Source: Candidatus Woesearchaeota archaeon
GTDB taxonomy: Archaea > Nanobdellota > Nanobdellia > Pacearchaeales > GW2011-AR1
NCBI GenBank assembly: GCA_964495875.1
Contig: CAZBWB010000001.1
Span: forward strand, 315,122-379,121
DNA: 64,000 nucleotides
Direction: 5' to 3'
The notes beneath the pieces are model-generated. The model made no database searches, had not been told where the DNA came from, and saw nothing but the letters and a program-made list of their open reading frames with translations. The translations under genes were made by a program, and so were the position numbers. The stretch's first letter is position 1. Each line of letters opens with the position of its first letter. Below are positions 29,339 through 50,000 of the stretch, in pieces.

Positions 29339-32300
29339 TTATGGATTTGAATTTTCAAATAACCCACCAACTAAACATAAATCTCCATATTTATCTATAC
29401 AAATAACATTATCATTGGATGAATTCCTGTAAATAAATGCGTCTTCTGGATTTGTGTTGCAGGTTGCACTATAATCAGAGCAATCTCCTGTTTCAACACA
29501 CATATCTCCTGATGAATTTATGAATGCTACATTATCACCTGTTGAGTTTTTTACAATAAAACTATTTGATCCAGGAGCATCACAACTTCCTCCTGAAAAG
29601 CAACTTCCCTTCAGGACGATATTGCCCTCATTTCCAAGCCATGCAACAACATCTCCTGATGAGCTCTTGTGGTAAAATTTGTAGGTGTCGTTTGGAGGAA
29701 CGGTTATATTTATATTAAAACTAACTACTTCACTATAATTCTTATTTCCAATACTGTCTTCACAATAATAATTAACAAAATAATCTCCGTTACTCATGCT
29801 TGAATTAGTTGCGTTGAAATTTTTACTGTCTGTTGTCCCCATTGTATTATTTGTTACTCCACCATCAAGAGAATATTCACAAATTCCATATTCATTTAAG
29901 GTTATATTAAAATCAATTGAAGAAACATTGTATGTTTGATTTAATGGAGAGATTATATTCACATTCGGTGCAATATTATCCACAATAACTTTAAGACTCC
30001 AGTTTTCATCAGCAAAACTGCCTCTTGATTTATTATCATAAGCAAAACAATTCCAATCAAAGACTGTACCATTTGGAATATTACTAAGAGTAAAAATTGT
30101 GATATTGGATGTTCCACTTATACTTTTGGTTTGATTTAATTGCCAGCTTCCAGCAATATTATGATATAGACTAACATTCACAAGTTCATAATTATCGTCA
30201 GATTGACAAACTAAATCAACATCTCCTTGTGTGGTGTATGTTGAATTATCAGGGGGATAAAGCAGAGTCACTTCTGGAGGAGTGTCACAATAATATGTGC
30301 AACCAGTAACATAAAGGTCATCCCAACCGTCTGGTTTTTCACATACATTCCCAGAACCATGTTCATCAGTTGTAGCAGACATATAAATATCATAATTAGT
30401 GTTTGATGGACAAAAATTATTATCATAAAGTTGGATGCCATCTTGGTCATCTATGTAAATTCCATAGTTATTTCCAGAAAAATTGTTCCAACTTATTGTT
30501 TCCTCCAAATCATAATTAGACCCTTTAAGATATATGCCATAAGTATTATCTTCAAAAAGACTGTCAGAGATTTCATTTATACTACTCCTTGTGAAACGCA
30601 AGGCATATTCATTATTAAAAAAACTATCGTTATCAAACACATTGTTATTTGGGGAATATTCTTCTGTGCTATGAAAATAAGATCCTTCTTCCTCTGCATT
30701 AAGAAAAATACTGTCTTTGACATACAAACTTCCTCCATCACCACTTGCACTGCCATAAGATTCCAATCCTTTCTCTTCTACATCAAAAACATTATTCAAA
30801 AATTCATTTCTGTCACTATCTCCAGTAATATATATCCCCTTCGTTGAATTGAATATGCAATTAAGAATCACATTATATTCAGTATTATGAATGTGAATTG
30901 CCTCATAATCGCTTGTTATTGTAGCACCCTGACAATTTAGAAATACTTTGTCAGGGGTATTATTCATATTTACCCTCTCATCATATGTTCCTTCATCAGT
31001 AATTTTAATTATATCTTCTGTAAGAGCATTGTCTATTGCATCTTGGATTGTTGTATAATCGCATCCAGAAGAACAAACAGTTATCTCATCTCCTCCAACG
31101 CAGGTTTCATCATATTCACATTTAGTTTCACTATCACATCCAGAAGGGGTGCAACTACGAGTATATTGCCTCTGAATACTTGAACAATTTCCTCCTCCGC
31201 ATGAACCTGAGGACCAAGAGGTGCAGGTGCAAACAGTATCAATCGCTGCTGAAGCATTTATCCTTGGAAAACTCAAACCACTGCTTGGATCATAAGGATC
31301 TCCTATAAGTTTTCCCGTATCTTGCAAAATTTCTCTAATTTCCTTGGGAGTTAATGTAGGGTCTCTATCCAAAAGTAATGCTGCTACTCCAGATGCATGG
31401 GGGGCTGCCATTGAAGTGCCAGAACATCTCATGTAGTCTCCAGAACAAGTGCAAGTACCAAAACAGGAATTAGGATTCCATCTCAAGGACCATATGTTCA
31501 TACCAGGAGCCAATAGATCTAAGTTAGTTCCTCTATTTGTTAAAGATGCTAAAATATCATAATCTTTAAAAGATGCACCAACAGATGTCACATTTGCTGA
31601 ACAACCAGGATAACTTGTTCCATTGACATAATAATCATTCCCAGATATAGATATAATTGAAACATTATAAAACGTAGCGTTATTTATATCTTCATCAATT
31701 AGAGTTGGGCAAATTCCATCTTTACCAAACGGACCATATTCTCCATGATCATATATACTTATACTGATAACATTGGAACCTACACTAATACACCACTCTA
31801 TAGCCTTGCCAATATCTCCTAAAGTTCCTTCGTTATCAGAATTAAGTGATTTAACAGCATAAACATCTGCACCATATGCTACCCCTTTATAGACAGAATC
31901 TTGTGATGCGATTATCCCTGTTACATGGGTCCCATGACCACAATTATCTAAAGCAGAATTATTACCATACTCCTCAGAATTTCCATTGTAACAACAATTA
32001 GAACTTCCCCCCTCAGATGCAGAACAGAAACATGCTTCTTCAATGATTTTTCCTTGCAAATCTGCATGAGTTTTATTTACTCCTGAATCAATTACACAAA
32101 TTTTTACCCCAGTTCCATTATATCCTAAATTCCAAACATAAGGATCAACTCCAATAAAAGGAACACTTTGAGAAAGAGCCCCTTCAACAGGAGCATTAAA
32201 GTAGATTTCAGTTACTCTGCTATCATTAATCAATTTTTCAAATCCTTCTTCAGTTATCTCTGCATCTATCCGTGATGAATAAGGTGATTTATATAAATCT

Positions 32301-32524
32301 CTGATTTCATTTACTGAAAAATTAGAAAATACATTATCCATCTCTGAAATATCTTTCAAATCTATAAGAACAGCTACCCAATTAGAATTATTCAATTCTT
32401 TTATAATTCCCTGATCAATTATCTTAGCTTCTTCCGAAGAAATCATCTGGATTTGAAAAATAAAAAACAATATAAAAATACCAAATACAACTAATCCAAT
32501 TTTTCTGCCTCTTTTTTTCTGCAT
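29339..32524 (-). CDS. Subtilisin-like serine protease (S8) with propeptide, beta-helix and Ig-like C-terminal domains
   Basis: Catalytic triad motifs VIDSGVNKTHADL (Asp146, codon 32089-32087), GHGTHVTGIIAS and SGTSMAAPHASGVAALLL. Downstream are right-handed beta-helix-like repeats (NCIFNS, GIYI, NNVF ...) and Ig-like modules rich in N-x-S/T. Confidence 0.85.
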   Translation of the reverse strand: MQKKRGRKIGLVVFGIFILFFIFQIQMISSEEAKIIDQGIIKELNNSNWVAVLIDLKDISEMDNVFSNFSVNEIRDLYKSPYSSRIDAEITEEGFEKLINDSRVTEIYFNAPVEGALSQSVPFIGVDPYVWNLGYNGTGVKICVIDSGVNKTHADLQGKIIEEACFCSASEGGSSNCCYNGNSEEYGNNSALDNCGHGTHVTGIIASQDSVYKGVAYGADVYAVKSLNSDNEGTLGDIGKAIEWCISVGSNVISISIYDHGEYGPFGKDGICPTLIDEDINNATFYNVSIISISGNDYYVNGTSYPGCSANVTSVGASFKDYDILASLTNRGTNLDLLAPGMNIWSLRWNPNSCFGTCTCSGDYMRCSGTSMAAPHASGVAALLLDRDPTLTPKEIREILQDTGKLIGDPYDPSSGLSFPRINASAAIDTVCTCTSWSSGSCGGGNCSSIQRQYTRSCTPSGCDSETKCEYDETCVGGDEITVCSSGCDYTTIQDAIDNALTEDIIKITDEGTYDERVNMNNTPDKVFLNCQGATITSDYEAIHIHNTEYNVILNCIFNSTKGIYITGDSDRNEFLNNVFDVEEKGLESYGSASGDGGSLYVKDSIFLNAEEEGSYFHSTEEYSPNNNVFDNDSFFNNEYALRFTRSSINEISDSLFEDNTYGIYLKGSNYDLEETISWNNFSGNNYGIYIDDQDGIQLYDNNFCPSNTNYDIYMSATTDEHGSGNVCEKPDGWDDLYVTGCTYYCDTPPEVTLLYPPDNSTYTTQGDVDLVCQSDDNYELVNVSLYHNIAGSWQLNQTKSISGTSNITIFTLSNIPNGTVFDWNCFAYDNKSRGSFADENWSLKVIVDNIAPNVNIISPLNQTYNVSSIDFNITLNEYGICEYSLDGGVTNNTMGTTDSKNFNATNSSMSNGDYFVNYYCEDSIGNKNYSEVVSFNINITVPPNDTYKFYHKSSSGDVVAWLGNEGNIVLKGSCFSGGSCDAPGSNSFIVKNSTGDNVAFINSSGDMCVETGDCSDYSATCNTNPEDAFIYRNSSNDNVICIDKYGDLCLVGGLFENSNP
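32186..32400. repeat. 215-bp perfect direct repeat, copy 1 (inside the S8 protease propeptide region)
   Basis: Base-for-base identical to 32655-32869 by my manual alignment (offset 469 bp). The flanks diverge immediately on both sides. Confidence 0.9.
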
Positions 32525-32531
32525 TTTATCT

Positions 32532-32990
32532 TTACTTATTCTTGTTTCTTCTAATTATAATATACAAGATTATCGCTAAAGGGATAATCATTAATAAGAA
32601 TAACCAATAATATTTTTTTCTGTTTCTCCTTCCGCTTCCGTTATCACCTCCACTAACAGGAGCATTAAAGTAGATTTCAGTTACTCTGCTATCATTAATC
32701 AATTTTTCAAATCCTTCTTCAGTTATCTCTGCATCTATCCGTGATGAATAAGGTGATTTATATAAATCTCTGATTTCATTTACTGAAAAATTAGAAAATA
32801 CATTATCCATCTCTGAAATATCTTTCAAATCTATAAGAACAGCTACCCAATTAGAATTATTCAATTCTTCTAATATCTCATCATCATACTCAACACCAGC
32901 ATCACTGACCAACATTTCAGCTCTAATAATCCCCAACACACTCACAACTACCAAAACCATCAATACACCAAATATTATCTTATTTCTCAT
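32532..32990 (-). CDS. Stand-alone membrane-anchored copy of the S8 propeptide (I9-inhibitor-like) domain
   Basis: Signal peptide, then 71 aa identical to residues 43-113 of the S8 protease (ELNNSNWVAVLIDLKD ... TEIYFNAPV). This is followed by a Gly/Arg linker and the C-terminal TM YYWLFLLMIIPLAIILYIII. Confidence 0.6.
   Translation of the reverse strand: MRNKIIFGVLMVLVVVSVLGIIRAEMLVSDAGVEYDDEILEELNNSNWVAVLIDLKDISEMDNVFSNFSVNEIRDLYKSPYSSRIDAEITEEGFEKLINDSRVTEIYFNAPVSGGDNGSGRRNRKKYYWLFLLMIIPLAIILYIIIRRNKNK
32655..32869. repeat. 215-bp perfect direct repeat, copy 2
   Basis: Identical to 32186-32400. Confidence 0.9.
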
Positions 32991-33047
32991 ATCTTCTCAC
33001 CTCCTTTCATATTTTTAAACATATTTATAACTTCAAACATTTTTGAA

Positions 33048-33461
33048 TTATTCGTTACATCCTCCGCAATTTTCACTAACTTCTTCAGAAACTTGCTCTT
33101 TACCAAATAATCTTAAAAAGAAATTACTAATTCCATTAATTAAATTCGTAAAAACATTATCAGATTCTTTGTCGTCTTTTGATTTTTCCTCTGCCTCAAT
33201 CTCTGCCCAAGTTTTATCAACAACTTTTCTCTTAGAAATCTCAACATCACTATCTCTCCATTCGCTCCAGTTTAATCCTTTTGGTCTTAAACTTGTCTCA
33301 TATTTAACTCCATCACCATAACCATAGATTATTTTTCCATCAATAATCTTGTATTTCAAATCCATGCTATCATCATAGCTATATGGATTTGCAGAAATAA
33401 AAGAAAGCATACTTATGATAATCAAACATAATAACACACTTAAAATAACCCCTTTTTTCAT
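33048..33461 (-). CDS. Small secreted protein
   Basis: Signal peptide MKKGVILSVLLCLIIISMLSFISA. Charged mature part ending in CGGCNE. Confidence 0.45.
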   Translation of the reverse strand: MKKGVILSVLLCLIIISMLSFISANPYSYDDSMDLKYKIIDGKIIYGYGDGVKYETSLRPKGLNWSEWRDSDVEISKRKVVDKTWAEIEAEEKSKDDKESDNVFTNLINGISNFFLRLFGKEQVSEEVSENCGGCNE

Positions 33462-41094: not shown

Positions 41095-44000
41095 TTATTT
41101 TTTTCTTTTCCATTTATAAAACTTTTCTCCCCTACCTGTTCCCACTTTTTCTCCTTTTCTTCTTTTTAACAATACAACGATGCCTGTAATAACTAAAACA
41201 GCACTTCCAATACCAATCAAAATCCATAACCAATAAGATTTAATTATCTCAACAAAACTGTTTAGTATTTTTCCAGTTTTTTCAAATATTTTCTCTTTAA
41301 CTTTTTCAGGCTCTTCGATAATCTTTCCAGCAATTACAAAATAACTAAATGAATCTAATTCAAGATCATAATAATAGTATCCATCATCTTCACTAATATA
41401 ATTAGTTTCCAGCACTTCCCACTCTTGAGAAGATTCATTAAATCTCAATATTTCAATATTGTCTCTCTCAATTTTATTCTCAGAAAGCCAGTTTTTCTCA
41501 ACCCAGATGATTATTACACTTTTTTCCAAGTTCTTTTCTAAATTTTCTGTCTCAATTTGAAAGTACTTATAGACTTTTGCCTCAATTTCTTTTTGAACTT
41601 CTGTCAATTTGCTGGCATGACTGATAACAGTTATTCTAGCGTTTTGTGTTTTATTTTTAACCTCAATTTGAATCTGTTTTATTCCGATTTCTGTGTCAAA
41701 ATTCTTCATTATTTCTATATCTCCAGGAGTAATTAATGGAAATAAGTGAGTATTGTTTTCTGCTGCAGATATTTTTGTCTCTCTCCCTCCTCCGCCGCCC
41801 CCTCCCCCACTGACAGGGCTAGTATAGGCAACAGTTAAGTTACGAGTTGAAGAATTTCCCATATTTCCTGAGAAATCAGTGCAATTGACACTCCAGTTAT
41901 AGGGGGCATTAGACAATGATCTTGTCAATGTCTGTGTTGTATCTCTTGTTACAGAACTCTCTGTATAACTTATATTGCTGTTTAATATCAAACTGCAATT
42001 AGATATACTATTCTCATCAGTAACATTATAACTGAAAGTAACTGTTGAACTTGATGTCCATCTTGACCCACCACTAGGAGAGACCAGACTTACTACAGGA
42101 GAAGTAGAATCAAGGATACTTAAATTATAAACTAGAGAAGTTCCTATATTATTATTGGAATCAGTGCAATTGACACTCCAGTTATAATTTCCATTAGCAA
42201 AAGTCTGGACAAATGTCTGATTTACATTTCTTGTTACAGAAACATTTGTCTGGTTTATTATATTATTAATTATCAAAGAACAGTTGTCTATAGAACTTGC
42301 ATCAGTCACGTTATAGATGAATGTGACTGTACTTGTAGAACTTGCTGAATTATTCCCAGGATAAGTTAAATTTATTGTTGGTGCTGTTGAATCAATAGTA
42401 AAGAATATTGTTGATGAATTTTCATTGCCAAGAGTATCATTAGCCCAAACAGTTACATTATGACTTCCCTCACTCCATGTCACACCAGTAATATTAGTTC
42501 CACAATTTGCTAATGAAACATTAACTTCCTTAGTATCATTGTGATACCAACAATATGCCAGATTAGTATCTGAAACACTATAGTTTACATTCAATCCAGT
42601 ATTAGAATGATTAGAAGCATTTGTTGGATATGTTATATTGATATCAGGATTTACTGAATCAATCATAAAAAACACTATTGAACTATTCTCATTTCCCACA
42701 GTATCATTAGCCCAAACAGTTACATTATGCTCTCCTTCACTCCATGTTACTGTTGTGATATTAGTTCCACAATCTGCCAATGAAACATTAACTTCCTTAG
42801 TATCATTGTGATACCAACAATATGCCAGATTAGTATCACTCACACTGTAATTTACATTAAGATTAAGATTAGAAGAGTTTGTATTATTAATTGGATATGT
42901 TATATTAATATCAGGATTAGTTGTATCTATATTAAAAGTCATATTAGTCGAGTTAGAATTTCCTAAGGTATCATTGCAGTATACTGTCCAAGTGTTATTT
43001 CCTTCTATAGAAGATAATCCTGTCCAATTAGTTCCCATTGCCACAGGAGATGATTTTGTAGCTCCGCTATCATTAGACCACTGACAATATCCGGGATTAC
43101 TTTCAATATAAGTGTAATTAATGGCAGTAACTTCTGCATTATATGATATATTTGAAGGATAGTCGAAGGTAATTTCAGGATTAATTGTATCTATCATAAA
43201 GAACACTATTGAACTATTCTCATTACCAGCAGTATCATTACACCAAACCGTAGCATTATGCTCTCCCTCTGACCATACTACAGAAGTTACATTTGCACCG
43301 CTTGATAAGGTTGTATTCTTTGAATTTGTATCATTCGTATACCAGCAAGATGCCAGGTTTGTATCTGAACGACTGAAATTGATATCCAAGTTTACATTAG
43401 AAGAGTTTGTATTATTAATTGGATAAATAATATTGATATCAGGATTAAAATTATCCTGGAAATATGTTACACTTGTAATTCCAGGATTATCCAGAGTATC
43501 ATTACAATATAAAGTTAAATTATTTGAACCCTCAGCAGAGTTGATATTTGTAAAGTTGGTTCCCATTGCCACAGCGGTGGAATTGGTTGTTCCACCATCC
43601 AGACTCCACCAACAATGTCCTGGATTTGTCTCAACATAAGTATAATTTAGTTTAGTTATATTTACATTATAAGTCTGATTAGCAGGATATGCTATTGTCA
43701 TTGAAGGAATTGAAGAATCTACAAAAAATGTAACAGTTTCTGAATTATTTATGTTATCTGAGGTATCGTTACAATAAAAGACTGCTGTATTAGAACCCTG
43801 TGATGCTGTTCCTGTCGCATTCCAGTATGTTGGTGAAGTTGAAGCATTTGTCATAGTATGGTTTGTATTTCCTGAATCAAGTGAATACAAACATGTGCTC
43901 ATTCCTGTCTCATCTACAGCAGTAACATTGAATGTGATTGTAGCATTTGTATATGTTGTATTACCAGGAGTGTTGATTGTTACATTTGGTGCTATTGCAT

Positions 44001-47000
44001 CAGTTATACTCAGAGTATAATTGCTATCTCCCCAATCACTATTGCTATCATTATCATAAGCTAAGCAATTCCAAATATAAGTTCCTGTAGATAAATTCTT
44101 AATAAAAGTACTTTCATTAGATGTCCCTGTAACATTACTTGTCTCATTCAAATGCCATCCATCACTCCAGTTTCCATATAAGCTTATGTTCACTAAACCA
44201 GAATTATCAATTGCTGAACAATTGAATGTTATTGAAGTTGATGAAGTTGAATTTCCATTAGCTGGGGAATTTAGTGTTACAACAGTATATTGAGATACTG
44301 GGTTATATTCATATGCTCCTATATCCCATTCTGCACTTCCATTGCTATCACCATCTATTGGTCTAACCACACCATTAAAACTTGTATTAAAAATATTGGA
44401 AAGGTCTGTTCCATTGTCAATTGCTGGAGAGTTGACTGTTAAAGTTGTTTCAGTTGAACTATATTCTCCAGAAGGGATAGCTTGCCATAAAGGATTTCCA
44501 TCAAATTCACCAGTTCCCAAAGTTACGCCCCTAGAACCAGAGGGGAAATAATATTGATTATAAATATGTGTTGCATAATTTGCATCTACATTCAAACATG
44601 ATCCATTGCCTGCTTGGTAAAATATATTGTTTTTCATATCTACAAGTTCATTAGACGTCATAGCCAGGCTTGTCCCTAAAATGTAATTGCTATTATCAGC
44701 ATAAATGGAATTATGATAAAATTTGATATTTAAATTGTCTTCAGAAGAATAGAAAAATATAGGTATACTAGAATTATATATAAGATTGTTATAAATCTCT
44801 ATATAATTTGATGTACTATTCATACCATTAACTGTTAAAAGATACGGCCTTCTGGTATCTGGATTATCTCGTATTAAGTTTGAATAGATTTTCCCATAAC
44901 TAGATGAGCCTCTAATTTGAAGAAGAGCATTGTGATCCCAACCAGCATCATCAGAAAAATAATCTTGTTGAATAGAATGATGAAACTCATTATGGTGAAT
45001 AGAGAAGTTTGGAGAATATCTTAGTTCATTTCCCCTATGTGCATATCCAACAATATTATATCTAACAGTTAAGTTGTCATTATTTTGACTTGCATCATCA
45101 GCTGCAAAATCTAAACAATAATTATTCCCTCCCCAACTAAAGTTGCTTGATATGCCATTCCAATATCCACACTCATCAACATCACACCATTCAACAATTG
45201 CATTATCAGAATCATCTGCTATTTTAATTCCTTTGTTATAAGTATGTTTTGAATTACAATGAAAAAGCCAAGCACTTTGTGCTGGAGTTCCATTATATCC
45301 TTTTATATGAATATTACCATCTTCATCACCATCAGCAGAACAATTATAAAAATCCATGTCAATAAGGTTTAAATATTGGCCCATCCCACTGTAGAACCCT
45401 CTACCACCAGCATTTTGAACTCTTAATCTTTGAAGAGTCACGTATTCTTTTTGAGTAGCACTAAAGCAGATACTTCCCCCTTCAGAAGCATTTATAATTG
45501 GCCGTTCTTGATTATAACCAACAAGAATAAATCTACTAGTGTCATTAGTTCCAGAGGGCAAACTAAAGCTATATTCATTATAAATTCCATCCCAACCACC
45601 ATGTGCTCCTCTTATTATAATAACTTTATCTCCTGAGACTGCTTGAGTTAGTGCATACCCAATAGTCGCGCAAGGAGAACCAAAAGTCTGACAATCTCCT
45701 GTATCAACCCCATCTTTCCCGTCAACATAATATTTTGTTCCCAGATAATAAGTTTTACCATTTGGATATTCATCATTTTTAATACTATAACTAGTTGTAT
45801 TCTCATTTATTGGAAAAGGAGTTGCATTAAAAATCCCTGCAGGTTTTCCATACCTATCAATACGATCATCCCATGAGAAATAATCTCCAGCACTAAAAGT
45901 GAGCAGACTAATATTTCTAACTTCTGAAATATTTGTATTAGTTCCATCTGAGCAATTAATCCACCATGTATAATCATCATTTCCCAGACTTGCATTTGCA
46001 GTAATTGTTGTTGAAGTAGCATTAAGAACAGATGAATTGTTTCCATAAGCCATATCACTTCCATTATTCAACCACAACAAACAATCGAGGATTGAAGCTG
46101 TTTCATCTGTTACATTAAATACAAAATCAGGAGTGTTGTCAGTAGTATTCAAGGTATTATTTGCAGGAGATTCTAAATAAACACTTGGTGCTGTTGTGTC
46201 TCCTGCACCGGTTATATTCAATGTATAATTAGCTGTTCCAAACCTGCAGTTGTTCTCATCATCACAAACATAACAGCTCCATTCATAATTTCCAACTGAC
46301 AAGCCACCAACACTGAAATTTGTTTCATTAGTTGTTCCTGTCACATTATTAGTTCCCTCAACACCCCACGCTCCTGACCAATTTCCATACAAACTTATAT
46401 TCACCAAACCAGAACTATCAATTGCAGAACAATTGAATGCAACAGTTGTACTGTTAGTTGAATTCAGATTTGACGGAGAATCCAAATCTACTCCCGGTAT
46501 TCCTGAAATCAATGGGTGTGGATAGTAATAAGGTTGATATAATTTTCCTGTAATAGTTTGTCCAATTGGATTAGTAAGAAAATAATTAGTATCCTCAACG
46601 ATATAAGAAGCGCATGATTCATTATTTAACTGAAATGTCACTGGATCACCATTTACCGTATTATTGTAAAAATATGTATCCTCAATTGGATCATAAGAAG
46701 TTGAATATTGGAAATCTATTCCTGTCTCCCATGTAATGTAGACATCAGGAACAATTTCTGTAATTTCCCAATAGTCAGTCCAATTTGCACCAGTCCCTGG
46801 TTCAGAATTTGCTGTTGATGTGTGATCCTGTAGACAAATATACTCTTCGCCGCCATGAGTACAAATAGCCGGAATCAGATAGTCATCGTAGACATCGTAT
46901 TCACTGAGCAACACATATGATGCTGGCGATCCTCCGGTGAGCGTATTGTTATACATCAACAGCCGTCCACCTCGCATATTTATCCATACGTGACTAGATG

Positions 47001-50000
47001 GACGGTTTGTTTCGAAAATATTATTATATATCTCTCCAGTCATGACAGCACGCGCCTGTGTATATCCTGGAATAACTGGATCATGATTATTTCCATGTTG
47101 GTTGATGATAACTGATTCAGTTAATCCCGTAAACGTGTTATATCTAACAACATATCGAGCACCATTACTATTTTGGAATAATGTTGATGCTCCGCTGTAA
47201 GTATTATCTTCAAAAAAGAAGGTATGTGAAGTACCATATTCGGGAGTAAATGTGTCATATGTAGTTTGATCAAGTCCGAGCACTTGTAAATCATCCGTAT
47301 TATTAACAAACTGATTATGATCAGCCACGCCATAAATTGAACCAACAACATCAATCCCTTGAAAATTCCCTCGTGTTATATAACAATTATGTACTCTAAT
47401 TTGAGTAATTGGAGTAGTAGTAGGATTATATAACTTTATACACTTCGAAATATCCGCACCATCTAATCTAATATTGCTCAAGACAAATAGTTCATCATTG
47501 GCTGGCGTTGACGGATAATAATAAATCAATGCACTAGTTTTGCTGTTTATGCCGCTTGTGATGATCGTATTTGCTACACCACTACCGGTAAGATACATTC
47601 CCTTGTCAATAGTTAGTGTATTACTCCACGTACAATTTCCAGCAGGAACCATTACTGTCATCCCACTCGTTGCATTAGCTACAGTAATATTCACATTTTC
47701 ATATGAACAACTGCATGCCTGCAAATGCGTTGAATTAATCCTAGTAAAATTCCCTGTGCAAATACTCAAACTTCTAATCTCACTAATATTTGTATTAGTT
47801 CCATCTGAGCAATTAATCCACCATGTATAATCATCATTTCCCAGACTTGCATTTGCAGTAATTGTTGTTGAAGTAGCATTAAGAACAGATGAATTGTTTC
47901 CATAAGCCATATCACTTCCATTATTCAACCACAACAAACAATCGAGTATTGAAGCTGTTTCATCTGTTGCATTGAATATAAAATCAGGAGTGTCATCCGT
48001 AAAGTTCGTTGTATCGTTTGCAGGAGATTCTAGATAAATACTGGGTGCTGTTGTATCACTTGTTATAGTAACACTCCTCTTTTCAGTATAATTCATATTA
48101 GAAGCATTATCCACTACATATGCCTGGTATGTATAAGTGCTATTTGAGAGTCCTTGAGTTGAATTAAATGATTGATTAACATACAAACTCCATTTGTCTG
48201 TATCATATTTTCTGAGATTCATGAAATAGAGTTGCTGAACTTCAGTTTCACTTAAACTTCTGTTCCAAACCATTATTTCATCTAAGGCATCCTGTAAATC
48301 ATTGCCTGAATTTCCTTCTATTCCGATAAGCATTGGCTGATTTGGATTAGAAATCACTTGCCCGATTGTAGGTTCTGTGGTGTAATCTATTCCATCTACA
48401 TAAATAGTTGCTGTAGTCCCCTCAATTACACCTACAATAAAATGCCACTCTGTATCTAAATTATAAGTTGCGAGAGCATAATCAGAACCACCCCCATACA
48501 ATGCGATATTATCACTTCCTGGATCATGATTAAATCCGAATCCTGCTGCATCCTCCCAACTATTTGCTTTTGAAATTATATCTGTCCAACTACTATCTTC
48601 GGGGTTATTAATTTTCATCCAGACAGCCATAGTCAGATTAGTGATCAAATCAAGACTTGTATCATTTGAGCAATTAATATATGTTCCTGAACCTGTGAAA
48701 TTTAATGCTTTTCCATATCTTCCCTGCATAGAGTTAGGGCATGATGCTCCATAACAAACTCCATCATTTCCATAACTGCTGATATCAGCAAAATTAGTAT
48801 CATTCTCTCCAATAGCAGACACATTGTCAAAATTCATCATTAAAACCAGAGAATTATCAAAAACAGAATAATTGGTTCCATTCCAGTTGAATGTTATATT
48901 CCCGACATCAGTAGCATTTGTTATTGAAACATTGATTTCTACACTCGTCTCTGATTGAGAGCTTCCATTATTTGGTGTTGGTGGAACAAAACTAAGATTA
49001 TAAGCTGATGCGGGATCAACAATATAATCAACCTCTATTGAATCACCAATGATCTTCAAATCAAAAACATCCTGTGTTCCCATTAAATCAGCCAGATAAA
49101 CCTTGTACCATGCTTCATCATTTATATTATCAAAAGTTGCTATCAGTTCATCTTCATCCTTTTCATAAACTTCAATACTTGAACTTTGATCAGCTCTTGC
49201 ATAAAGGGTTATATCTCCCTCGCTAGTTAAATTCTTTTCAAAAACAATCCTAACATATTCTCCTTCTTTGATTGGTTCACTCCATATGTCATCTTTGGCT
49301 TTTACTTCATCATAAATATCTGAAATAAATACTCTATTCTCATCGAGATGCTCTGCTTTTGTTATTTCTATAACCAACTCATAACTCTGGCTACTCAAAC
49401 TAGGAATAATCCATTCAATAGAATCAATCAAAGAATTGTTGTTAATATCTATATAATCAACAATCTCAACTGATTCTTTGATACCTCCAGTAGTTCTATA
49501 CAGCTTAACAGCATTTTTGGGAGCTTCTTTTGGCAGCTCTGTGAATGCCAGAACATTTTCATAATGGATATCATCAGGACCAACAATAGTTATTAACTTC
49601 TTATCTTTCTGCTCTTCTTCAACTGAATAAGGTGCAGGAGTTTCATATTCAATTTCCACTTCTTCAACAGCTCCTTCAACATCAACAACAATGTTTTCTC
49701 TGCTTTCAATATTTTCTACAAGAAATAATCCAGTAAATCTTATTATATTCCTAAACCACCCCATAACAGAAGATGTTTTTGTATTTTCTCCCACAATATT
49801 TCCTGTAATATCAATTTTGATTCCTTGTTCTGTTATATTAGTCTCTTTCTCTCCAATCTCTTCAGTTTCATTAACATCAATCTCGGCTGTTTCATTAACT
49901 TCTTCTGTAACATTAATCTTGCTTTCCTTTGTATCATTAATCTCTTTTGTAAACTCATTTTCCTCTGTTACATTTCCAGGAACTGTTATATTAACTTCTT

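Follow-up and report, generated by a model that had tools for sequence, protein, structure and literature searches.

In this work, we analyzed a stretch of 64,000 nucleotides (nt) from contig CAZBWB010000001.1 of Candidatus Woesearchaeota archaeon (assembly GCA_964495875.1; a DPANN archaeon of the Pacearchaeota), hereafter the window, and specifically the pair formed in it by the gene of a secreted S8 protease of 1061 amino acids (aa) and a small gene directly upstream, whose 152-aa product we call the anchor. Between a predicted signal peptide and a predicted C-terminal transmembrane (TM) helix, the anchor carries a domain (the I9 domain) that is identical at the nucleotide level to the propeptide region of the protease. 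Comparisons with related loci point to recurrent gene conversion as the process that keeps the two copies alike, within a gene family that is itself old and conserved. The best overall explanation, which we consider reasonably probable, is that the anchor is a tethered cognate propeptide, homogenized by conversion, that would serve as an inhibitor of, or a dock for, the mature protease.

The shared segment is an exact direct repeat of 215 nt (coordinates in Table 2), maximal in that it is extensible by 0 bases at either end, with flanks that are unrelated from the first base outside the match. Read in the same frame on the minus strand, the two copies give one and the same stretch of 71 residues (ELNNSNWVAV...TEIYFNAPV). 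The genome assembly (632 kb in 5 contigs, 88% complete) holds 2 copies of this domain, which sit in two different genes on one 401-kb contig, and a 215-nt exact match by chance in DNA of 33% GC is ruled out. Among repeats of 80 nt or more in the window, this one alone is 100% identical: the remaining long ones reach 63-90%, a range that also holds for the internal repeats of a giant surface-protein open reading frame (ORF; 45907-46205 / 47764-48062 and 42352-43447), which shows that the other long repeats of this DNA are not homogenized to 100%. An Rfam scan of the window returned no family. A mobile element or a hairpin was considered and rejected, the sole inverted repeats being weak ones inside the repeat itself (about 72% complementarity).

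We compared the window with 13 further anchor-protease loci and, besides these, with locus L042, where the partner of the anchor is a truncated protease stub (Table 1). In 10 of the 13, the anchor and the adjacent protease share tracts of 95-100% nt identity. The tracts are discrete and sharp-bordered, 99-341 nt long, variable in extent and identical at synonymous sites, and the within-locus identity of 95-100% contrasts with about 37% between genomes of the same genus. Furthermore, (i) between the window and L001, of the same genus, anchor residues 1-42 are 71% identical, the I9 domain 37%, the catalytic domain 45% and the C-terminal part of the protease 64%, while within each of these two genomes the N-terminus of the anchor is only 23-30% identical to that of the protease, (ii) a maximum-likelihood tree of 47 domain copies contains 10 strongly supported sister pairs of an anchor and the protease of the same locus, plus one pair of identical sequences, and its supported branches force at least 12 switches of gene type, (iii) constraining the anchors to one clade made the tree 1013 log-likelihood units worse (approximately unbiased test, p-AU 1.5e-54), and (iv) genome G211 harbors two pairs, in which the anchors match their own neighbor at 95-100% identity and the other pair at 36-37%.

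Table 1. Tracts shared by anchor and adjacent protease, and the anchor residue equivalent to protease P1.
Locus	Tract	Nucleotide identity	Anchor residue at P1 position	Remark
Window	215 nt	100%	Asp	
L001	208 nt	99.5%	Asp	
L003	222 nt	96.4%	Glu	second of two I9 domains
L005	305 nt	88%	Val	
L013	99 + 62 nt	100%	Asp	split tract
L014	none			30% aa identity
L015	303 nt	99.7%	Asp	
L016	220 nt	72%	Thr	
L017	341 nt	100%	Asp	
L018	159 nt	95.6%	Glu	3' half only
L019	178 nt	100%	Glu	3' part only, first of two domains
L024	217 nt	99.5%	Asp	third of three domains
L044	208 nt	100%	Asp	
L045	314 nt	99.4%	Glu	
L042	182 nt	98.4%		partner is a truncated protease stub

Partial tracts such as those of L018, L019 and L013 are predicted by conversion and not by duplication of the whole domain. 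Taken together, the identical synonymous sites, the sharp borders, the variation of the tracts in length and age, their partial cover and the orthologous anchor flanks argue for recurrent gene conversion; judged from these alignments, the process is conversion between adjacent direct repeats and not repeated new duplication. On this evidence, the I9 domain of the anchor is repeatedly overwritten by, or exchanged with, the neighboring propeptide through non-reciprocal recombination, acting between direct repeats about 470-820 nt apart and leaving tracts that stop at the end of the propeptide. In this way the two copies of one genome stay identical, whereas from genome to genome the domain changes fast. 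We found no report of gene conversion in subtilisin propeptides in the literature. An artefact of assembly, that is, a collapsed or copied repeat or a chimeric join, is extremely improbable as the source of the identity: although one public protein (P0039, described below) shows joins across the repeat, both copies of the window are in frame and have different flanks, in different genes of one long contig, and the same arrangement recurs in at least 13 assemblies (NCBI, ENA, JGI and Logan) with tracts of 99-341 nt and identities of 72-100%. That at least 13 loci, assembled independently of one another, show this structure weighs strongly against such an artefact.

A preliminary description of this DNA, made from its letters alone, had reported the 215-bp identity with abrupt divergence of the flanks, and a signal peptide and C-terminal TM anchor in the 152-aa ORF; all of these were borne out, the last by an N-terminal signal-like helix, a TM helix and a basic tail, and the comparison of orthologous loci that it proposed yielded the 13 loci above. 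Of the two origins it had offered, ongoing gene conversion stands, whereas a recent one-off duplication does not, given the tracts in 10 of the 13 further loci. Its claim that the duplication recently created the small gene has to be abandoned, since the anchor appears to be an old, conserved family member of which the I9 domain is repeatedly overwritten.

The nature of the shared domain was addressed through profiles, predicted structure and position. Pfam PF05922 was matched individually by 16 of 24 homologous domain copies from related loci (best E-value 2.1e-10). The alignment of 24 such copies (A2), used as a profile, matched the prosegment of subtilisin BPN' (1spb_P, E=1.4e-5), the propeptide of subtilisin E (1scj_B, 2.5e-5), 3bgo_P and the pro-S8 peptidase 8jmw; its matches to POIA1 (1v5i_B, E=0.04) and to the cucumisin and Tk-subtilisin propeptides were non-significant (0.04-0.9). 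The AlphaFold2 (AF2) model of the anchor, built with a 29-sequence alignment, has a mean predicted local distance difference test score (pLDDT) of 85.7, and of about 96 across the domain, which adopts a beta-alpha-beta-beta-alpha-beta fold (strands 49-55, 73-78, 84-89 and 103-108; helices 58-64 and 91-98). Foldseek was run with the whole 152-aa model, and prosubtilisin matches were judged by root-mean-square deviation (rmsd) and probability: the low-rmsd PDB matches were prosubtilisin chains, namely 3cnq_P (probability 0.99, TMt 0.71, rmsd 2.7) and 8c4x_B (rmsd 2.1), with 3afg_A, 2z58_B and 1spb_P as further prosubtilisin matches; probabilities were 0.89-0.99 over 3cnq_P, 8c4x_B, 2z58_B and 1spb_P. 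In the protease, the position of the copy fits a propeptide, as residues 43-113 precede the invariant Leu117 and Ser120 and the PF00082 domain at 137-404. By profile and predicted fold, the shared domain is of I9 type at the family level, and we regard propeptide identity and gene conversion, taken jointly, as highly probable. The preliminary description had placed the segment where an I9 propeptide belongs and had made its reading depend on structural likeness to subtilase propeptides; the BPN' and E prosegments reached by the profile and the open-sandwich fold with its prosubtilisin matches uphold both points, and the PF05922 search it suggested gives matches for 16 of the 24 family copies and none for the window's own.

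The border of the shared sequence falls close to the predicted autoprocessing site of the protease. We placed Leu117 at P1 by aligning EGAL/SQSVPF (slash, cleavage site) with the mature N-terminus of subtilisin, Y/AQSVPYG. Neither Leu117 nor Ser120 varies among 50 homologous proteases, the P1 position is Leu in 14 of 14 paired proteases read (the 13 converted pairs and L014), and in the AF2 model of protease residues 1-430 (pLDDT 90.8) the only low-confidence stretch comprises residues 112-115. Identity between the two copies ends at, or a few residues from, the invariant Leu; in several converted pairs it reaches precisely as far as P2, and by P1 it has ended in every one. At the equivalent position the anchor has an acidic residue in 11 of 13 pairs (Table 1; L051 excluded), versus 26% Asp plus Glu at the remaining linker positions (binomial 1.6e-5). 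The window anchor reads SGGD at P4-P1 in place of EGAL, and in L001, L013, L017 and L024 the anchor residues P4-P2 are the same as in the protease's own tail.

In I9 propeptides, it is the sheet that contacts the mature enzyme and the C-terminal tail that occupies S4-S1, and an acidic P1 is a very poor fit for the subtilisin S1 pocket. By analogy, a tethered copy identical up to or near P2 should bind the mature protease after the latter's own propeptide has been degraded and, because of the acidic misfit in the S1 pocket, should escape clipping at the canonical site. An archaeal propeptide can inhibit its cognate subtilase tightly and highly selectively (PMC10580911). The anchor would thus display an exactly cognate, non-cleavable propeptide on the cell surface and hold the mature protease inhibited, or docked, at the membrane of the producer, the outcome being self-protection or spatial control of a secreted hydrolase. 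For this function of the anchor as such, a tethered cognate inhibitor or dock, which we argue from the behavior of known propeptides, we would put the chances slightly above even. A further and more doubtful possibility is that conversion is selected to keep a membrane-tethered immunity inhibitor matched to a fast-diversifying secreted protease, akin to toxin-immunity modules; if so, the change of P1 from Leu to Asp or Glu would make the tethered propeptide uncleavable, and anchors with several I9 domains (2-4) would be immunity arrays against several protease variants.

Other roles can be envisaged for a tethered propeptide. It might mainly act in trans as a foldase, chaperoning new catalytic domains at the membrane, for instance those without a propeptide of their own: mesophilic subtilisins depend on their I9 propeptides as obligatory folding catalysts, and chaperoning is within reach of POIA1 variants (bioRxiv 10.64898/2026.05.05.722857, PMC10580911), an identical sequence would be a perfect template, and the operon places the anchor first. 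The protease, however, has a complete propeptide in cis, and neither a non-cleavable P1 nor a membrane tether is of obvious need for folding, which makes a primarily chaperoning role unlikely. The anchor might instead retain the protease, active or readily activated, for display against a host or prey cell, inhibition being incidental. The protease does lack a TM segment or other recognizable anchor while the small protein has one, and the acidic P1, together with SGGD for EGAL in the window, could weaken occupancy of the active site yet permit docking. Against such a display tether, the P4-P2 residues match the protease tail in the four loci named above and in known complexes the tail fills the substrate cleft, so that docking without inhibition would be unlikely; moreover, the conserved Cys-rich C-terminal module of the protease could itself serve attachment. 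We consider display as the main role to have a low probability.

Homologs of the same architecture as the anchor numbered 41 in a word-indexed search, and an exhaustive search gave 84 representatives (at 50% identity) at E<=1e-30 and 397 at E<=1e-10; most of the top 150 are 150-500 aa long, and some have up to four I9 stretches. Where sources are named, they are Candidatus Pacearchaeota for anchors and Nanoarchaeota for proteases. No Pfam or NCBIfam family of its own exists for the anchors. Of 401 genomes sampled from the same order, 69 had a profile match and about 15 a bona fide anchor, by which we mean an ORF no longer than 401 aa whose tail is hydrophobic and K/R-ended. An S8 protease gene follows directly downstream of the anchor in L001, L003, L005, L013-L019, L024, L044 and L045; L020, with two proteases, and L037, on a truncated contig, were set aside. 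Signal peptide, motif and TM helix are kept across 41 to more than 84 family members, and all anchors have a hydrophobic tail that ends in K/R. The best-conserved part of the family is the motif EMLVSDAGVEYD (preceded by (A)), which follows directly on the predicted signal-peptidase site, at a family-conserved VSA/EML junction with the predicted cut after (V/I)-x-A. Residues E25-D36 are invariant except A31 in alignment A1, and E25 and Y35 are nearly invariant in alignment A3. In all anchors this motif sits just outside every conversion tract.

These features bear on the possibility that the anchor is a non-functional by-product, left to decay after a partial tandem duplication had copied the 5' end of the protease gene, and homogenized passively. 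Truncated protease stubs beside the anchors of L004 and L042, the frameshifted anchor of L051 and the chimeric ORF P0039 would fit decay. The signal peptide, the EMLVSDAGVEYD motif and the TM helix with its basic tail are nevertheless conserved in dozens of divergent members, the anchor-specific elements are unlike the protease N-terminus (23-30% identity), orphan anchors are kept intact, and dN/dS between the copies is below 1, ranging from 0.12 to 0.61 in the older pairs, whose copies have drifted apart after the last conversion. These substitution ratios show both copies to be under purifying selection; we regard a by-product as very unlikely and the anchor as very probably functional.

Several observations weigh against the interpretation of the anchor as a homogenized cognate inhibitor or dock. 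First, the window copy alone gave no PF05922 match (E<=1), and the Foldseek E-values were non-significant for so small a domain (0.04-0.2, best 0.04), because the domain is short, its fold common and the model includes two terminal helices. In addition, the AF2 model of protease residues 1-430 does not show the prodomain docked in the canonical way (3afg, 3whi and 2zwo, all pro-forms, align to it with an rmsd of about 16.6 Å), so that the binding mode of the propeptide is assumed from homologs. Besides, the acidic P1 may partly reflect an acidic linker composition, the 13 pairs are phylogenetically non-independent and homology ends at that point anyway; likewise, the 3' tract end is the end of homology, and its position may be mechanical, not selected. 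Adjacent copies are also diverged in L014 (30% aa identity) and L016 (66% aa identity). Finally, orphan anchors with intact ORFs and no adjacent protease occur in L012, L023, L025, L040, L041 and L043, and in the genomes of 85-89% completeness that were searched (G399, G222 and G129) they had no near-identical partner, although S8 proteases were present. The existence of orphans means that a strict one-to-one cognate function is not universal, and their lack of near-identical partners that homogenization goes with adjacency.

Some family members depart from the simple arrangement. Anchors with 2-4 I9 domains occur (L003, L013, L019, L024; P0165 and P0192), of which just one is homogenized with the adjacent protease, and in the tree the sister of the first L024 anchor domain is a protease propeptide that comes from another genome (L033); the sequences hint that multi-I9 anchors are arrays of different propeptide types. 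In L045 (4001-4798) the 265-aa anchor is enlarged by a Cys-rich domain of some 90 aa, which separates the signal peptide from the (V)LISDAGVEYD motif. In L004 (4170-8211) the anchor is followed by a decayed protease stub of 113 aa (about 50% identical by eye to the I9 domain of the anchor), then by a DUF333 protein and by a papain-like (C1) protease with the NosD/Ig C-terminal architecture of the S8 proteases, an apparent swap of the catalytic domain. L042 likewise has a truncated protease stub beside its anchor, and L051 is a rearranged locus with a frameshifted anchor. The 160-aa protein P0039 begins like protease P0038 (N-terminus and I9 domain) and ends like the anchor that matches it, P0013 (linker and TM tail), and is either a real product of unequal crossover or a mis-join across the repeat.

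Table 2. Features of the anchor-protease locus (window positions; all on the minus strand).
Feature	Position	Strand	Basis
Secreted pro-subtilase, 1061 aa	29339..32524	-	Pfam PF00082 (9.3e-46), PF05048 (NosD, 2.3e-16)
S8 catalytic domain, residues 137-404	31313..32116	-	Pfam PF00082; Asp146, His197, Asn296, Ser371
Leu117, predicted P1 of autoprocessing site	32174..32176	-	alignment of EGAL/SQSVPF with subtilisin HAY/AQSVPY
I9 propeptide (repeat copy), residues 43-113	32186..32400	-	repeat comparison, profile matches to prosubtilisins
Spacer AGATAAA, 7 nt, anchor stop codon to protease ATG	32525..32531	-	sequence
Anchor gene: stand-alone membrane-tethered I9 propeptide paralogue, 152 aa	32532..32990	-	ORF, family membership, AF2 model
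Basic tail RRNKNK, residues 147-152	32535-32552	-	sequence
C-terminal TM helix, residues 127-146	32553..32612	-	AF2 helix 123-150
Asp116 of anchor, equivalent to protease P1 Leu	32643..32645	-	alignment
Linker SGGDNGSGRRNRKK, residues 113-126	within anchor	-	sequence
I9 domain of anchor (repeat copy), residues 42-112	32655..32869	-	repeat comparison
N-terminal motif EMLVSDAGVEYDDEILE, residues 25-41	32868..32918	-	family alignments; outside conversion tract
Predicted signal peptide, residues 1-24, MRNKIIFGVLMVLVVVSVLGIIRA	32919..32990	-	AF2 helix 2-19, family junction
Upstream leader of anchor: TATA-like box GTTATAAATA and Shine-Dalgarno GGAGGTGA	32991..33047	-	putative, from motif reading

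The protease of the window (Table 2) is the sole S8 protease of its genome, with a single PF00082 match, and comprises a signal peptide, the I9 propeptide, the S8 catalytic domain, a NosD beta-helix, Ig-like modules and a Cys-rich C-terminal module. Asp146, His197, Asn296 and Ser371, that is, the Asp-His-Ser triad and the oxyanion Asn, are invariant or nearly so in the 50 homologs, and its AF2 model superimposes on subtilisins in Foldseek with a TM-score of 0.9 and an rmsd of about 2.2 Å. The C-terminal module (about 29339-29700, minus strand; about 110 aa) contains a triple repeat (YKFYHKSSSGDVVAWLGNEGNIVLKGSCFSGGSC...GDLCLVGGLFENSNP) and has no Pfam family. It is also found at the end of the L005 protease and of a second S8 protease in L001 (8118-8459) that is otherwise different, and it begins at the cut end of the papain-like protease of L004; it may be a shared sorting or attachment module.

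The 7-nt spacing, together with the TATA-like box and the Shine-Dalgarno sequence before the anchor, makes the two genes look like one operon, the spacer indicating near translational coupling of anchor and protease to judge by the gene layout. Tight spacing is also found in L001 (1 nt), L003, L005 and L045, and the genes overlap in L044. A sigma-70 promoter scan, which does not apply to archaea, gave matches at shuffle level. The next gene upstream of the anchor (33048-33461, minus strand) encodes a 137-aa secreted protein (ANPYSYDDSMDLKYKIIDGKIIYGYGDGVKYETSLRPKGLNWSEW...), with syntenic homologs in L001 (124-519), L004 (3586-4173) and L040 (4766-5170), no Pfam match and only a sub-threshold NCBIfam match; it may be a third member of the module.

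To our knowledge, independently encoded propeptide-like subtilase inhibitors have been characterized only in fungi and plants. The stand-alone inhibitors of MEROPS family I9 (yeast PBI2, Pleurotus ostreatus PoIA1/2, Trichoderma TrI9 and plant SPI-1) resemble the anchor in being separately encoded and consisting essentially of one I9 domain, and their action, binding and inhibition of a subtilase, is by likeness what would be expected of the anchor, whose family profile reaches POIA1 only weakly. Like them, the anchor gene is a separate I9 gene with its own start and stop and no catalytic domain. Those inhibitors, however, are eukaryotic, soluble, unlinked to a protease gene and old, diverged paralogues. 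The anchor is archaeal (DPANN), is not a small soluble protein given its predicted signal peptide and C-terminal TM helix with basic tail, is encoded immediately upstream of the protease in a putative operon, has 1-4 I9 domains across its family, is made nt-identical to the cognate propeptide by what appears to be conversion, and carries an acidic P1-equivalent. From the propeptides that act in cis (subtilisin BPN'/E, Tk-subtilisin, Tk-SP and pernisine), with which the protease copy shares domain family, fold and position (junction L/xQSVP here, Y/AQSVP there), the anchor differs in being a separate chain with a linker and TM helix in place of the catalytic domain and without a hydrophobic P1.

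Outside the subtilases, small inhibitors homologous to protease propeptides include Spi, encoded beside speB in Streptococcus pyogenes, and the I29 inhibitors CTLA-2 and BCPI. The speB locus offers a conceptual parallel, a propeptide-like inhibitor gene next to that of the protease that protects the producer; these proteins, in contrast, target the cysteine clan (C10/C1), and Spi is cytoplasmic and untethered. We know of no report of concerted evolution for Spi. Independently encoded I9 inhibitors are known from fungi and plants (bioRxiv 10.64898/2026.05.05.722857), and in the literature on stand-alone I9 inhibitors and, at the level of titles and abstracts, on Pacearchaeota subtilisins, we found nothing on the anchor family. 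Judging by its sequence features, the locus is most likely a variant of the propeptide-like subtilase inhibitor that is archaeal, membrane-anchored, operon-coupled, homogenized and altered at P1.

Altogether, these results define a sizeable, so far unannotated archaeal (DPANN) family with at least 84 representatives at 50% identity. Recurrent conversion that keeps an inhibitor-like domain matched to a fast-evolving propeptide would be an unusual evolutionary solution, since specificity would never be lost, in contrast to step-by-step co-evolution, in which it could be. The acidic P1-equivalent provides a testable design rule for a non-cleavable propeptide inhibitor. As to the biology of DPANN archaea, the arrangement suggests a way in which cells of minimal envelope could shield themselves from the hydrolases that they secrete towards hosts, or position these enzymes.

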